Source: an uncultured Candidatus Saccharibacteria bacterium (GTDB lineage: Bacteria; Patescibacteriota; Minisyncoccia; CAIUEV01; JAHKAQ01). From it: DNA of 54,939 nt. The stretch spans positions 1 through 54,939 of the forward strand of contig CAZTZK010000019.1 of assembly GCA_964618065.1 (NCBI GenBank). The letters are read 5' to 3'. Both the position numbers and the translations under genes were made by a program. Every line of letters starts with the position of its first letter. Position 1 is the first letter of the stretch. This document shows, in pieces, positions 4,775-9,390 of this stretch. The notes under the pieces are model-generated. The model saw only the letters and a program-made list of their open reading frames with translations, had not been told where the DNA came from and ran no database searches.

Positions 4775-5215
4775 ATGACTATTCAAAAAATATTATTATC
4801 TTTTAGACCCAAAAAGGAGAATCTACTTCCTCTTCTTCATCAAGTTAATTCTTGCTTTGGCTATATTTCAAAAGAGGATACTTATAGGATAGCAGATTAT
4901 TTTGGGATTATGCCGGCTAAAATCTACGGAATTATTACCGCTTCCGGAAATCTTAATTACAGAAAACCCTCTCGGGTTGAAATAGCTGTTTGTTCTGGAC
5001 AGAATTGTAAATTGAAAGGCTCTGCTGAGATTCTAAGAGAAATAGAAAATTATCTTTCAGTTAAAGCTGACCGTCAACCGACAGAAGAAATAAATCTTAG
5101 GACAATTAGTGGCGGAGGGCATTGCTTGATGGGTCCAACCTTGATTGTAAATGGTAATTTTTACGAAAATGTCAAACCCTTTGAAGTAGATGATATTTTA
5201 AAAAATTATTTCTAG
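4775..5215 (+). CDS. NuoE/HydC-like thioredoxin-fold [2Fe-2S] subunit (incomplete Cys set)
   Basis: 146-aa ORF. It has VCSGQNCKLKG (C-x4-C) and HCLMGPTLIVNG blocks in the NuoE/24-kDa subunit arrangement and sits directly upstream of a NuoF-like gene. Only 3 of the 4 usual cluster Cys are present. Confidence 0.7.
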   Translation: MTIQKILLSFRPKKENLLPLLHQVNSCFGYISKEDTYRIADYFGIMPAKIYGIITASGNLNYRKPSRVEIAVCSGQNCKLKGSAEILREIENYLSVKADRQPTEEINLRTISGGGHCLMGPTLIVNGNFYENVKPFEVDDILKNYF

Positions 5216-5246
5216 ATTTTAAAGGTTTTTAGAAACAAAAATTAAA

Positions 5247-6533
5247 ATGGAAGAGAAAAAAAATATTACCAAGCTTTGGAATAAAATTAACCCTTTTTTG
5301 ATTGAGAGTTATATTAGTGAAGGAGGATATCAAGTACTTTCAGATTTTTTAAAAACTCCAAAAACAAAGAAGGAAGCACACAAAGCTCGGGAAAAAATTA
5401 TGAGAACTCTTGAAGCATCAGGCTTAAGAGGGAGAGGCGGGGCTGGTTTTCTTACGAGTAAAAAATGGAAAATGGCGCTGGACAACTCTTTAGAAAAAAA
5501 GAAGCCACTTTATTTAGTGGTGAATGGGAACGAAGCTCAGCCAGGTTCTTTCAAGGATAGTTTCTTAATGAAAAAAAATCCTCATTTAATAATTGAAAGT
5601 ATAGCTTTAGCTGCTTATGCTCTAGGTAGCAAGAAAGCCATTTTATATCTTAATGGAAATTTTAGAGAGGAGCTTGCTATTATGAAGCAAGCCTTGATGT
5701 CCGCTCGTGAGCATGATTTTCTAAAAGGAGAATTTTTAAAAAGTGGCAAAGAAATTAAAATTGAAATTTTCCAAGGTGTTGAAGGGTATGTTTACGGAGA
5801 AGAAACTGCTCTTATTAATGTTTTAGAAGGAAACTTAGAGGGACCCCAAGCTAAACCTCCTTTTCCTACGCAGAAAGGTTACCGAGGATGCCCAACTGTT
5901 GTTAATAATTTAGAAACAATAGTTAATCTTGTTTCTCTTCTGGAAATGGGGCCCAAGGCTTATAAAAATTTAGGGGAGGATAATTCTAGTGGAACTAAAC
6001 TTTTTTCTGTTTCTGGCTCAGTTAAAAATCCAGGCGTATTTGAATTTCCTCTAGGAGTTACCTTGAAAGAAATAATATATGGAGTTTGTGGCGGGCCCGA
6101 AAAAGGGAAAAAAATAGCTTTTGTGCAAGCCGGTAGATTTAATAATTTTTTTTCCGAAAAAGAATTAAACTACCGTTTAGTTTATGAAGAAGGAAAAGGG
6201 AAAATTCCTGTAGGTACAGGTGATATTTTTGTAGTGGATAAAAACGCTGCTTTAGAGGATTTACTGCTTTCTTGGGCACAATTTTATCAACGGGAATCTT
6301 GCGGAAAGTGTACTCCTTGTAGAGAGGGAACTTATCAGCTTTTAAAAATTGCCGAGAGATCAAAAGATAAAAATATGCTGGAGAAAGACTATGAAAACTT
6401 AAAAGATATTTTAGAAGTTATGGAGAAAACTTCTTTGTGTCCTTTGGGTAATTTTGCGGCTCAACCCTGGAGAGGAATTATTAAATTTTATGGAGAAAAC
6501 TTTTTTTTAGAGAGGAAGAAAAATAAAAGATAA
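5247..6533 (+). CDS. NuoF/HydB-like NAD(H)- and FMN-binding subunit with a 4Fe-4S site
   Basis: 428-aa ORF. It carries GLRGRGGAGFLTSKKW (FMN site), GEETALINVLEG, and ESCGKCTPCREG...C (the N3-type 4Fe-4S motif). Confidence 0.85.
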   Translation: MEEKKNITKLWNKINPFLIESYISEGGYQVLSDFLKTPKTKKEAHKAREKIMRTLEASGLRGRGGAGFLTSKKWKMALDNSLEKKKPLYLVVNGNEAQPGSFKDSFLMKKNPHLIIESIALAAYALGSKKAILYLNGNFREELAIMKQALMSAREHDFLKGEFLKSGKEIKIEIFQGVEGYVYGEETALINVLEGNLEGPQAKPPFPTQKGYRGCPTVVNNLETIVNLVSLLEMGPKAYKNLGEDNSSGTKLFSVSGSVKNPGVFEFPLGVTLKEIIYGVCGGPEKGKKIAFVQAGRFNNFFSEKELNYRLVYEEGKGKIPVGTGDIFVVDKNAALEDLLLSWAQFYQRESCGKCTPCREGTYQLLKIAERSKDKNMLEKDYENLKDILEVMEKTSLCPLGNFAAQPWRGIIKFYGENFFLERKKNKR

Positions 6534-6535
6534 AA

Positions 6536-8350
6536 ATGATAGAAATAAAAATTAATCATAAAAAATACAAAGTTCAAGAAGGCAAAACTATATTGGAAAT
6601 TTGTCGTCAAAATGGTATTGATGTTGCTTCTCTTTGTAGTCATCCTGACCTTTCTAAAATTCAGAAAAATAAAAAAGAAAAATATTTTGGAGAAGCGGTT
6701 TGCCGACTTTGCTTAGTAAAAGTTAGAAAAAAAGGTGAAAAAAAATATCAGTTACAACCTTCTTGTAAATTAAAAGCGGAAACAGGCTTAGAAGTTATTA
6801 GTGAAGATGCTGAAATTATTAGGCTAAGGAGGACTAATTTAGAATTACTCTTTGCTAATCATGCCGGTCTGTGTTCACATTGCTCAAAAAATATGGATTG
6901 CGAGTTACAAGATTTAGCAATTAAATATGATATTGATGAATTTCGTTTTGTTCCTCGGCTAAGTGAGATAGAAAGTAGTGAAGAGCTTGAATTTCTTTAT
7001 GAAAAAATGTCTCGTCGCCTCATAGATGATAAGAATCCTTGTATTGCTAGAGATTCCGAGAAATGTATTAATTGTGGACGTTGTGTAAGAGTCTGCGAAG
7101 AAATTCAAAAAGTAGGAGCTTTATCTTCAACTGGAAAAAATAACAAAGCAGTCCCGGGAACAGAATATAATGTACCTTTAGAATGTAGCTATTGTGGCCA
7201 ATGTACTACTCTTTGTCCCACTGGAGCTCTTACTGAAAAGAGTGAAATAGGTAAATTTATAAAAGCTGTTAACGATTCTTCTAAAACGGTAATAGCTCAA
7301 GTAGCTCCTTCTCTAGCAGTTTCTTTAGGAGAAGAATTTGGAATGGTCCCCGGAGCAGTAATCTCTTTTAAATTAACTGCAGCTTTAAAAAAGATTGGAG
7401 TTGATTTAATTCTTGATACTGGTTTTGGAGCTGATCTTGCCTTAGTTGAAGAGAGCTCTGAACTACTAGAAAAAATTAGAGGCAAAAAAGAATCTCTTCC
7501 TCTTTTTTCTAGTTTTTGCCCATCTTGGGTTTTATTTTTGGAACAAAATTATCCTGAATTTTTGGAAAATCTTTCAACTGCCCGTTCTCCTTTTATGGCA
7601 TTAGCTTCATTAACAAAAAGTTATTATGCTCGTCAAAATAAACTAAATCCCAAAAGTATTTTTTCAGTTTCTATTACGCCTTGCATCGCAGAGAAATATG
7701 AGGCTACTAAGCCGGAGTTTAAGAAGAAAGGTTTTAGGAATATTGATTGCGTGCTTACCCCCAGAGAATTAGGTAGAATAATGAGAGGCAAGAAATTAAA
7801 AATTACTGAAGTTGAAGATTCTGATTTTAATCAACCATTGGGAAGGGGTAGCAAGTCAGGATTTGTTTTTGAAAATTCCGGAAGTGTTACCGAAGCTGTT
7901 TTAAAAACAACCTGTCAATTAACTTCTAAGAAAAATCAGCAAGAATTTAAATTTGTAAAAACTAAAGTTTCTCCAGGTATTGAGGATGCAGAATTAAAGT
8001 GTGGTTTTCTAAAATTAAAAGCTAAAATTGTTTCTGGTTTGGGGAATGCCAGAAAAGTTTTAGAAAGTATAAAAAAAGGTAAAAGCGATTTTGATTTTTT
8101 AGAAGTAATGGCTTGTCCTTATGGATGTATAGGAGGCGGAGGGCAACCTATTCCTACTGATTCTAAAATTAAAAAAGCTAGAAGAAAATCTCTTAATGCT
8201 CAAAGCAAACAATTTTCTCCAGATTTACCCTTGGAAAATCCTGCAGTTGCAAAAATTTATAATGAATTTTTAATTTCTTCCGGAAGCCGAAAAGCTAAAA
8301 GATATTTACATACAGGATATAAGCAGTATCATTATAAGTGGAGAAAATAA
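6536..8350 (+). CDS. [FeFe]-hydrogenase-like large subunit (HydA-like) with NuoG-type N-terminal Fe-S domains
   Basis: 604-aa ORF. N-terminal 2Fe-2S ferredoxin Cys pattern, H-x3-C-x2-C-x5-C (HAGLCSHCSKNMDC), and two ferredoxin motifs (CINCGRCVRVC, CSYCGQCTTLCP). H-domain motifs are FSSFCPSW, ITPCIAEKYE and EVMACPYGCIGGGGQP. Confidence 0.8.
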   Translation: MIEIKINHKKYKVQEGKTILEICRQNGIDVASLCSHPDLSKIQKNKKEKYFGEAVCRLCLVKVRKKGEKKYQLQPSCKLKAETGLEVISEDAEIIRLRRTNLELLFANHAGLCSHCSKNMDCELQDLAIKYDIDEFRFVPRLSEIESSEELEFLYEKMSRRLIDDKNPCIARDSEKCINCGRCVRVCEEIQKVGALSSTGKNNKAVPGTEYNVPLECSYCGQCTTLCPTGALTEKSEIGKFIKAVNDSSKTVIAQVAPSLAVSLGEEFGMVPGAVISFKLTAALKKIGVDLILDTGFGADLALVEESSELLEKIRGKKESLPLFSSFCPSWVLFLEQNYPEFLENLSTARSPFMALASLTKSYYARQNKLNPKSIFSVSITPCIAEKYEATKPEFKKKGFRNIDCVLTPRELGRIMRGKKLKITEVEDSDFNQPLGRGSKSGFVFENSGSVTEAVLKTTCQLTSKKNQQEFKFVKTKVSPGIEDAELKCGFLKLKAKIVSGLGNARKVLESIKKGKSDFDFLEVMACPYGCIGGGGQPIPTDSKIKKARRKSLNAQSKQFSPDLPLENPAVAKIYNEFLISSGSRKAKRYLHTGYKQYHYKWRK

Positions 8351-8382
8351 TATTTCTATTTTTATAAATTGATCTTAAAAAA

Positions 8383-9390
8383 ATGGTAAAAATTGCTATC
8401 AATGGTTTTGGCAGAATTGGCAGAGCCAGTTTCAAAGCAGCTTTTAAACGTAAGGATCTAGAAATTGTAGCGGTAAACGACTTGGCTAATATTGAAATAT
8501 TAGCGTATTTACTCGCTCATGATTCTGTTTTTGGAAATTACGATAAAGAAGTAAAAGTTAAAGGAACCAGTCTTTTTATAGATGGCAAAGAAGTTCCTAT
8601 TTTTTCACAGCCTGACCCCAGTCAACTTCCTTGGGGTAAACTAAAAGTAGATGTCGTTTTGGAATGTACAGGAGTTTTTCAAGATTCAAACAAGAGTAAA
8701 GCTCATCTTGAAGCTGGAGCTAAAAGGGTTATTATTTCAGCTCCCCCGAAAGATAAAACTAAAATTCTTTGTCTGGGCTGTAATGAAGAAGAATATAAAC
8801 CCAAAAAAGACTTTATTGTTTCTAACGGATCTTGCACGACTAATTGTTTAGCTCCGCTTGCCAAAATTCTTAACGACGAAATAGGGATTGAAAAAGGTTT
8901 GATGACTACTATCCATAGTTATACCTCTACTCAGAATCTAGTTGATGGACCCAACAAAGACTTTAGAAGATCTCGGTCGGGTAGTTTAAATATTGTTCCA
9001 ACTACCACAGGAGCAGCTATCGCTGTTACCAGAGTTATTCCTGCTCTAGAAGGTAAATTTAACGGAATGGCGGTTAGGGTACCTTCCCCTTGTGTCTCCT
9101 TAGTGGATTTAGTTGCTAAATTAAAACAAAATGTTACCTTAGAAAAAGTAAACAGTCTTTTTATTGGAGCTTCTCAAGGATCCTTGAAAGGAATTTTAGC
9201 AGTAGAAAAAGAACCTTTGGTATCATCTGATTTCCGCGGTAACCAATATTCTTCAATTGTTGATCTTGGCCAAACGATGGTGGTTGGTGATCTGGTTAAA
9301 GTTATTGCCTGGTACGATAATGAATGGGGCTATTCTGAAAGATTGATAGACTTGGCAATTTATATGACGCAGGAGGAAGAAAAAAAATAA
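8383..9390 (+). CDS. gap: Glyceraldehyde-3-phosphate dehydrogenase
   Basis: 335 aa. INGFGRIGR N-terminus, catalytic SNGSCTTNCLAP, and WYDNEWGYS near the C-terminus. Confidence 0.95.
   Translation: MVKIAINGFGRIGRASFKAAFKRKDLEIVAVNDLANIEILAYLLAHDSVFGNYDKEVKVKGTSLFIDGKEVPIFSQPDPSQLPWGKLKVDVVLECTGVFQDSNKSKAHLEAGAKRVIISAPPKDKTKILCLGCNEEEYKPKKDFIVSNGSCTTNCLAPLAKILNDEIGIEKGLMTTIHSYTSTQNLVDGPNKDFRRSRSGSLNIVPTTTGAAIAVTRVIPALEGKFNGMAVRVPSPCVSLVDLVAKLKQNVTLEKVNSLFIGASQGSLKGILAVEKEPLVSSDFRGNQYSSIVDLGQTMVVGDLVKVIAWYDNEWGYSERLIDLAIYMTQEEEKK

Follow-up and report, generated by a model that had tools for sequence, protein, structure and literature searches.

A three-subunit [FeFe]-hydrogenase-type complex of Patescibacteria which has very likely lost hydrogen catalysis and is probably kept for electron transfer

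We have studied a stretch of DNA of 54,939 nucleotides (the window), which is contig C19 (CAZTZK010000019.1) of GenBank assembly GCA_964618065.1 and carries the genes of a three-subunit complex of the [FeFe]-hydrogenase type. The genome, which we call G000, has 715,539 bp in 48 contigs, about 32% GC and an estimated completeness of 92%. Its close relatives have been deposited as Candidatus Moraniibacteriota or as metagenome-assembled genomes of the "Patescibacteria group". Four open reading frames follow each other on the forward strand, with intergenic gaps of 31, 2 and 32 nt. The first one is hydC (4775-5215), which codes for a NuoE-like [2Fe-2S] subunit of 146 aa with a thioredoxin fold (PF01257, E 1e-25). 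It is followed by hydB (5247-6533), which codes for a flavoprotein of 428 aa reduced to its NuoF part: it has an FMN/NADH site, an SLBB domain and an N3-type [4Fe-4S] cluster, and only the Pfam domains Complex1_51K, SLBB and NADH_4Fe-4S. The third gene is hydA-like (6536-8350, 604 aa) and has three parts. Residues 1-245 (6536-7270) are a NuoG-type iron-sulphur (Fe-S) relay with a [2Fe-2S] cluster, a His-ligated [4Fe-4S] cluster and two further [4Fe-4S] clusters (Fer2_4, NADH-G_4Fe-4S_3 and Fer4_Nqo3). Residues 250-535 (7283-8140) form the H-domain (Fe_hyd_lg_C, PF02906, E 6e-76), and a C-terminal tail similar to the hydrogenase small subunit (8141-8350; Fe_hyd_SSU, PF02256) wraps around it. 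The last gene of the string is gap (8383-9390), a type I glyceraldehyde-3-phosphate dehydrogenase (TIGR01534, 419 bits vs a cut-off of 367). A first-pass annotation, made from the sequence, had described a trio in the order of HydABC with gap 32 nt downstream; the coordinates and the Pfam domains bear this out.

The locus was compared in 14 species genomes of the same order (G000-G013); three of these species, G000, G009 and G010, form the genus g1. The order hydCBA-gap is also found in G007, G008, G009 and G010, which supports the proposed link of the complex with gap and NADH. The gap genes of G000 and G009 are 86% identical, with a ratio of nonsynonymous to synonymous substitution rates (dN/dS) of 0.06. 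The locus is fully syntenic with those of G010 and G007, both of which have a canonical hydrogenase: a membrane glycosyltransferase-like gene, hydC, hydB, hydA, gap, a pilin gene, murD and comEC. A promoter scan found 23 matches, not clearly above the 16.8 +/- 4.0 of shuffled sequences, and the four terminator-like matches (3.8 expected) all lie inside open reading frames. Since both scans are uninformative, the operon is deduced only from the gaps of 2-32 nt and from synteny.

The register of the HydA-like protein was fixed by phmmer alignments to the solved T. kivui HydA1 and Clostridium pasteurianum CpI; its residue numbers are those of CpI plus 28 after a loop insertion of a single residue. 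The best solved match is T. kivui HydA1 (8A6T_A, 7e-123, 414 bits), followed by the proteins of A. woodii and T. maritima and by CpI. All 20 Fe-S ligands are kept. Sixteen of them belong to the accessory clusters, and their columns are invariant in an alignment of 50 sequences. The other four are the Cys of the [4Fe-4S]H cluster and its bridge: C328, C383, C527 and C531, which correspond to C300, C355, C499 and C503 of CpI and had been numbered correctly in the first-pass annotation. The A230-P231-S232 motif, P324, F417 and the relay residues E279, E282 and S319 are also kept.

The residues around the [2Fe] site are changed. F327 (codon 7514-7516) stands at the position of CpI C299, the proton-relay Cys, so that the motif reads SSFCPSW instead of TSCCPxW. 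E386 (codon 7691-7693) corresponds to K358, the Lys which contacts the distal cyanide (CN) ligand (PMC10147833), in a motif ITPCIAEKYE instead of MPCxxKxxE. T381 (codon 7676-7678) replaces M353, and E446 (codon 7871-7873) replaces G418, which adjoins Phe417. There is also Phe at Q325 (F353) and Ser at G422 (S450), while R234A, T275A, N269G and R286K are further changes in or near the pocket with respect to CpI. The replacements of the relay Cys and of the Lys had already been noticed, and the alignments place them in the same register, although the first-pass annotation had allowed for a shifted register which would bring back the canonical Cys, Lys and Met. Its statement that both conserved Met have become Thr is right for M353 only. 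M497 is retained as M525, in EVMAC, and the L3 motif ExMxCxxGCxxGGGQP is present, reading EVMACPYGCIGGGGQP. The Thr of GSVTEAV lies instead at the position of CpI M424, where otherwise canonical relatives have M, T, A, L, V or I.

These changes are rare among homologues. Cys is found at the C299 position in 117 of the 121 aligned sequences, and the only ones to deviate are our protein with its close copy P0001, P0019 and P0026; Lys is found at the K358 position in every canonical homologue aligned. The annotation's reading would have been refuted if active hydrogenases commonly had these substitutions, which is not the case. When the corresponding Cys of CaHydA was subjected to saturation mutagenesis, turnover was efficient with Asp only (PMC3485046). 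The profile scores are also low. PF02906 gives 258 bits, vs 285-326 bits in canonical members of the class, and TIGR02512, which is curated for group A, gives 394.5 bits, under its cut-off of 405.95, while the canonical G010, G007, G012 and G003 score 478-500. In the tail R563, H566 and P582, which are nearly invariant elsewhere, are replaced in G000. The predicted AlphaFold2 model has a mean pLDDT (local confidence) of 86.9 and a pTM (global confidence) of 0.88, with TM scores of 0.87-0.92 to solved HydA structures including 8A6T_A, and it indicates that the HydA fold is kept. The substitutions are not sequencing artefacts, since P0001, a protein with 99% identity found on three other contigs, has the same ones, and the key changes are shared by the second species G009; contamination or an assembly error is rejected on the same grounds.

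The 121 aligned homologues include a Patescibacteria clade of about 29 sequences with 40-65% identity to our protein, followed by ordinary "group A6" enzymes (A3 in HydDB) at about 38%. In the IQ-TREE phylogeny this clade is sister to the canonical A3-type sequences. Inside it the three species of the genus are grouped as (G010,(G000,G009)), with SH-aLRT values of 99-100. The branches from the node of the genus have a length of 0.15 in G010 vs 0.41 and 0.43 in G000 and G009. HydA of G009 is 70% identical to that of G000 and shares the states of F327, E386 and E446. Other pocket sites differ between these two species: T or V at M353, F or S at Q325, S or N at G422 and M or L at M497. Besides the change of M497 to Leu, in G009 E279 has become Thr and GGGGQP has become GGGGQS. 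The third species, G010, is 64% identical and is canonical, with SSCCPAW and IMPCTAKK.

One HydA homologue is found in each of the 14 genomes of the order. We have also examined a sample of the class with 401 genomes, 44 of which have a HydA homologue, and retrieved the H-domains of all 47 HydA-like sequences. Of these, 42 are canonical at TSCCP and MPCxxKK. Phe at C299 together with Glu at K358 and G418 is found only in G000 and its congener G009. The replaced residues include those which are decisive in characterised enzymes, and their replacement is specific to this lineage. Independent decay of the pocket is apparent in P0019 and P0026, metagenomic proteins from a sister family with long branches, which read GSCP/VSCTANK and SQCP/VPC. 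The three remaining deviants among the 47 sequences are paralogues of shorter types, in open frames of 539, 470 and 267 aa (G317:C3:72443-73267, G391:C7:8970-9671 and G229:C13:1182-1847). In place of the relay Cys they have His or Pro, and their L2 motifs are altered as well (SHCP, NPCP).

The rate of change is very different in the parts of the HydA-like protein. In the N-terminal domain (92-240/245) the identity to five canonical family members is 0.63 in G000, 0.62 in G009 and 0.61 in G010; in the H-domain it is 0.50, 0.51 and 0.63 and in the tail 0.43, 0.47 and 0.60. The maximum-likelihood patristic distances to 11 outgroups give a similar picture: 0.93, 0.93 and 0.94 for the N-terminal domain of the same three species, and 1.37, 1.33 and 0.92 for the H-domain plus tail. 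Between G000 and G009 dN is 0.076 in the N-terminal domain, 0.262 in the H-domain and 0.265 in the tail, with rough dN/dS values of 0.04-0.07, 0.2-0.3 and 0.4. On the terminal branches of these two species the H-domain has evolved 4.0-4.6 times faster than the N-terminal domain, whereas the rates are about equal in canonical lineages; G011 and G012, a canonical pair, even have the slower rate in the H-domain. There are 192 columns which are invariant in six canonical family members. In G000 or in G009, 47 of them have changed, and for 46 of these 47 the position is residue 247 or later. The pocket residues are not clearly changed more often than other conserved sites of the H-domain (about 3 of about 14, vs 44 of about 178), and for this reason we claim a relaxation of the whole domain with decisive individual changes, not a targeted remodelling.

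For the whole genes dN/dS between G000 and G009 is 0.15 in hydA, 0.11 in hydB and 0.10 in hydC. The three genes are not pseudogenes, since these values are found at dS > 1.3 and there are stops in neither species. Constraint is relaxed only in the H-domain and the tail; the N-terminal relay, the Cys of the cubane and HydB are still under selection.

The small partner HydC has also lost a ligand. Its family pattern is C-x4-C followed by S-C-x-G-x-C-x-x-G-P, and in an alignment with six orthologues the five canonical ones read SCxGxCxxGP. HydC of G000 reads SGGGHCLMGP: the third cluster Cys, C113, has become Gly (codon 5111-5113, GGC) and three of the four Cys are left. HydC of G009 reads SCAGHFLAGP, in which the fourth Cys has become Phe. 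A HydC Cys has been lost twice independently, after the separation of G000 and G009. In HydB the Cys of the N3 cluster are kept in both species. There are changes at positions which are invariant in relatives: DESQPG has become NEAQPG in G000 and NESQPG in G009, GFPTG has become GFLTS and GFSTG, and G[AS]GGY has become GVEGY and GVAGY.

The first-pass annotation had assigned the trio to the electron-bifurcating type, an assignment which HydB does not support. This protein has neither the N-terminal [2Fe-2S] domain nor the C-terminal 2x[4Fe-4S] domain, nor any other added ferredoxin domain. Its best solved match, from end to end, is Aquifex NuoF with 294 bits, ahead of HydB from T. maritima (269), A. 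woodii (257) and T. kivui (239). Bifurcating enzymes have Ala/Glu and Met near the NADH site and Phe near FMN (PMC7311640). The pattern found in non-bifurcating NADH-dependent enzymes is Thr/Ser with Lys, and Tyr (Losey et al. 2020, PMC7311640). HydB of G000 has the latter one, with Ser and Lys in NEAQPGSFKD and Tyr in GVEGY. The test for bifurcating HydABC (NF040763) gives 580.8 vs a cut-off of 765. Since HydB is a bare NuoF with non-bifurcating residues, the ancestral enzyme was most likely of the kind of Hyd1ABC from Syntrophomonas wolfei and not a bifurcating HydABC.

The rest of the genome offers several partners for electron transfer. G000 encodes PorABDG, a four-subunit PorGDAB enzyme (contig C18:520-3509), and a second 2-oxoacid:acceptor oxidoreductase with two subunits (OAFO alpha/beta) next to a ferredoxin of 61 aa (C22:2170-4790, with the ferredoxin at 2170-2355). 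It also encodes a 2x[4Fe-4S] ferredoxin of 62 aa, in an open reading frame within C40:7890-8162. Two distinct oxidoreductases of the 2-oxoacid:ferredoxin kind are encoded in these 0.7 Mb. None of the 14 genomes has a match for L-lactate or malate dehydrogenase (Ldh_1_C), and in the order iron-type alcohol dehydrogenase is found only in G012. The HydA-type hydrogenase looks like the main sink of the order for reducing equivalents. A flavoprotein of 453 aa, on the reverse strand of contig C33 (9621-10982), belongs to the family of CoA-disulfide reductases and NADH oxidases (Nox/CoADR); it scores 250 bits with TIGR03385, under the cut-off. Among the 14 genomes its orthologues are found only in the three species of genus g1, with 73-76% identity.

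The absence of hydE, hydF and hydG from the window, also noted in the first-pass annotation, extends to the whole genome in our profile searches, which, with Thermotoga and Bacteroides as controls, did find the maturases above cut-off. HydG (TIGR03955) and HydE (TIGR03956) have no match in the 92% complete genome, and HydF (TIGR03918) gives only GTPase-domain matches of 18-46 bits, vs a cut-off of 325 bits. The three maturases are also absent from the other 13 genomes of the order, which include one of 99% completeness in six contigs. The searches for HydE and HydF covered the order, with its 14 genomes, and the search for HydG all HydA-bearing genomes of the class sample; HydG is absent from the 30 further ones, so that 44 of 44 have no HydG. 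The annotation had counted the missing maturases as an argument for an odd function. This argument does not hold: the absence is common to the whole clade, and it does not single out the decayed protein, because the 44 genomes without HydG contain 42 canonical HydA-like sequences among their 47. A comparable situation has been described in archaea, where 125 of 130 HydA-bearing genomes have no full maturase set and artificial maturation nevertheless yields active enzymes (Greening et al. 2024, PMC11216029). In the literature searched we have found nothing specific on [FeFe] hydrogenases of Patescibacteria (the candidate phyla radiation) with their maturases, nor any account of their absence throughout the class.

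From these sequences we consider it very likely that the complex no longer makes or oxidises H2. The non-canonical pocket with a possible redox function other than H2 chemistry, which had been suggested before, is also our best reading: a former hydrogenase without H2 catalysis has probably been kept as an Fe-S/FMN electron-transfer complex. That it works specifically as a ferredoxin:NAD+ oxidoreductase is a plausible assignment, which we make tentatively.

The sequences record the following history. The ancestor was most likely a non-bifurcating, NADH-linked [FeFe] hydrogenase of three subunits. In the sublineage of G000 and G009 selection on the binding pocket of [2Fe]H has lapsed. The relay Cys was replaced by Phe, the distal-cyanide Lys by Glu and M353 by Thr (Val in G009), and a second Glu arose beside Phe417. 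The H-domain and tail came to evolve about four times faster, and later a different [2Fe-2S] Cys of HydC was lost in each species. Strong purifying selection has meanwhile persisted on the N-terminal Fe-S relay of HydA, on the four Cys of the H-domain cubane and on HydB with its FMN and [4Fe-4S] sites.

The [2Fe] unit is reportedly lost from a K358N variant, and the insertion channel of apo-HydA carries a positive charge. K358E and G418E would together shift the charge of the pocket by three units against the anionic cofactor, and Phe would fill its amine side. Because of this charge shift and of the Phe, the protein most likely carries the cubane only and has no H2 turnover. The enzyme formerly had two input branches, one for ferredoxin at the relay of HydA and one for NADH at the FMN of HydB; they appear to be still wired together, so that ferredoxin:NAD+ oxidoreduction would be the default activity. 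Reduced ferredoxin from PorABDG and from the second oxidoreductase may thus enter the Fe-S wire of HydA and leave it through HydB-FMN as NADH. This NADH, together with that of Gap, may be re-oxidised by the genus-specific Nox/CoADR flavoprotein, which is the weakest step of the scheme.

Several points weigh against this reading. The Nox/CoADR gene is also present in the canonical congener G010, so that the gene alone does not explain the loss; we reject it as the cause, and it can have been permissive at most. The docking of ferredoxin on HydA is assumed from CpI-type enzymes. As dS is saturated, dN/dS can be read only roughly. Some constraint is left on the H-domain, with dN/dS of 0.2-0.3, and F327, E386 and E446 are common to both species; instead of decay, these three residues could reflect selection for a new site. 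The changes of HydB at the FMN/NADH site (D to N, GAGGY to GVEGY) and the ligand lost in HydC could indicate that the redox function as a whole is weakening. Since the canonical relatives are also without HydEFG, the family might even use an unconventional cofactor with other demands on its pocket.

Other explanations have also to be considered. In one of them, which we think unlikely, the perfectly conserved pockets of about 40 other Patescibacteria HydA proteins without maturases hold a real H-cluster, made or scavenged by an undescribed route independent of HydEFG, possibly from a host. In G000 and G009 either the route or the need for it would have been lost and the cubane may have been re-used for another reaction; this lineage would then be a natural negative control, in which the pocket, the H-domain and the cluster of HydC decayed fast after selection on the [2Fe] site had ceased.

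Another explanation, quite unlikely in our opinion, is that the operon has no function any more and is being lost, so that the decay of the pocket, of the HydC cluster and of some HydB sites would be stages of a single process. All three subunits do have changes at positions which are invariant elsewhere, two species have lost different HydC Cys in parallel and the genome of 715 kb is highly reduced. On the other hand, at dS > 1.3 three neutral frames (3.5 kb with 32% GC) would be full of stops, whereas they are intact with dN/dS of 0.10-0.15. Nor has the rate risen in the N-terminal domain of HydA, where dN/dS is 0.04-0.07, and both species keep the 16 ligands of the relay, the four Cys of the cubane and the N3 Cys of HydB.

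It is very unlikely that the protein is still a working hydrogenase, slow or biased, with its [2Fe] cluster in a remodelled pocket. The four H-cluster Cys would be in favour of it, together with the APS motif, P324, F417, M497, E279, E282 and S319. Sensory enzymes of groups C and D also bind an H-cluster although they have no relay Cys and M353 is replaced by Ser, Thr or Gly, and a hydroxyl residue at this position is typical of group D HydS, which are H-cluster binders (PMC8163306). Furthermore, an order with no lactate dehydrogenase and nearly no alcohol dehydrogenase seems to depend on H2 as its main electron sink. However, K358E reverses the charge at the contact with the distal cyanide, where all canonical homologues aligned have Lys. 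Phe at C299 is bulky and cannot ionise, at a position where only Asp was efficient, and G418E adds a second acidic residue. G009 has gone further, with the loss of E279, of M497 and of the Pro in GGGGQP, and a rise in rate throughout the H-domain corresponds to a loss of constraint and not to fine tuning.

We find it equally hard to believe that the H-domain has acquired a new function, in which the freed [4Fe-4S]H cluster, with a new acidic and aromatic pocket (F327, E386, E446, T381), would bind another metal or a small substrate and the complex would be an NADH-dependent reductase of a substrate other than protons. F327, E386 and E446 are unchanged in two species which differ at 37% of H-domain positions, and a dN/dS of 0.2-0.3, the four Cys and a confident predicted fold agree with some function. 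But the shared states are to be expected from common ancestry alone. The variation between the two species at M353, Q325, G422 and M497 looks like drift, and there is neither a new conserved motif nor a new neighbour gene in a locus which is fully syntenic with that of canonical G010. Finally, a sensory-like function of the HydS type, also mentioned in the first-pass annotation, is rejected: the protein is the only HydA of the genome, lies in a structural operon, has the M3 architecture with the Fe_hyd_SSU tail and neither PAS nor an extra C-terminal Cys motif, nests in the group-A-type Patescibacteria clade and has Glu at K358.

Among known systems, the electron-transfer complex which we favour is closest in organisation to the non-bifurcating Hyd1ABC of S. 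wolfei. Both have a NuoE-like subunit, a NuoF-only beta subunit without extra Fe-S domains and an M3-type HydA, with Thr/Ser and Lys in the EPG-x-F-x-D motif, Tyr in GxGxY and a link to NADH-producing metabolism. They differ in that here the pocket is not intact (C299F, K358E, M353T, G418E), HydC has one cluster Cys less, there are no maturases and the host is a Patescibacterium and not a syntroph. The features of non-bifurcating HydABC are found in the beta subunit; the gamma subunit has three of the four Cys and the alpha subunit departs from the L1 and L2 motifs of the pocket. The bifurcating HydABC complexes of T. kivui (8A6T), A. woodii (7Q4V) and T. maritima (7P5H) share the gene order and the Fe-S relay of HydA, and they provide the best solved matches of HydA. 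In contrast, their HydB has the extra N-terminal [2Fe-2S] and C-terminal 2x[4Fe-4S] domains, while HydB here scores higher to NuoF.

The sensory HydS keep Lys at the distal cyanide. Those of groups C and D (TmHydS, TamHydS) lose C299, M353 and M497 (PMC8163306). They have M2e/M2f architecture and a C-terminal Cx2Cx4Cx16C motif, with or without PAS, and usually accompany a catalytic HydA (PMC8163306). The protein studied here resembles them in the lost relay Cys and in the small or hydroxyl residue at M353, but it is an M3-type, sole HydA which nests in group A and has Glu in place of the distal-cyanide Lys. A further parallel is Nar1/NARFL (IOP1), which derives from [FeFe] hydrogenase, has kept the Fe-S Cys while losing the [2Fe] site residues and the activity, and is re-used in an Fe-S role. 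These eukaryotic proteins, however, act as monomers in the assembly of cytosolic Fe-S proteins, have neither a NuoG-type domain nor NuoEF partners, and represent an independent and far older event. The HydA proteins of DPANN and Asgard archaea (PMC11216029), Giardia and Entamoeba are also found in small genomes without HydE, HydF and HydG; the difference is that their pocket is kept and that they are active after artificial maturation, whereas here the pocket is lost.

We have found no description, in the literature searched, of a bacterial HydABC-type complex in which the subunits and the wiring have outlasted the H-cluster pocket. The complex would be a bacterial example of a hydrogenase scaffold which is retained for electron transfer once H2 chemistry has been lost. 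The occurrence of [FeFe] hydrogenases without HydEFG is an open puzzle in archaea and in some protists (PMC11216029), and the same situation is now apparent across a class of Patescibacteria, with HydG as the marker in 44 HydA-bearing genomes. The comparison gives a handle on it: canonical pockets are preserved by selection, and G010 on one side and G000 and G009 on the other are a natural set of variants for cofactor binding. Annotation should also be cautious, as a Pfam match alone would score this genome as H2-producing in a metabolic reconstruction.

Other features of these genomes deserve mention. In the sister family (G001-G006) hydA is found alone; it is of the M3 type and lies in a different conserved string of six genes (loci L028-L033 and L067-L069), to which P0019 and P0026 also belong. 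Its neighbours have no Pfam match, with lengths of 592, about 227, 182, 39 and 277 aa, and several of them look membrane-bound. The top score in the protein search was obtained by P0121, a predicted protein of 4122 aa in which seven separate stretches resemble HydA; this may be a giant protein with multiple H-domains or else a mis-call. No closer relatives came out of this search, in which the cluster of our protein is represented at 52% identity. In G000 itself contig C40 (2011-8433) has a cluster of genes for DUF134, a NifX-like Nitro_FeMo-Co protein, two P-loop NTPases of MinD/CbiA type with 4Fe-4S domains, a 2x[4Fe-4S] ferredoxin and the DUF59 protein FeS_assembly_P, which is possibly a module for handling metal clusters in a genome without HydEFG.

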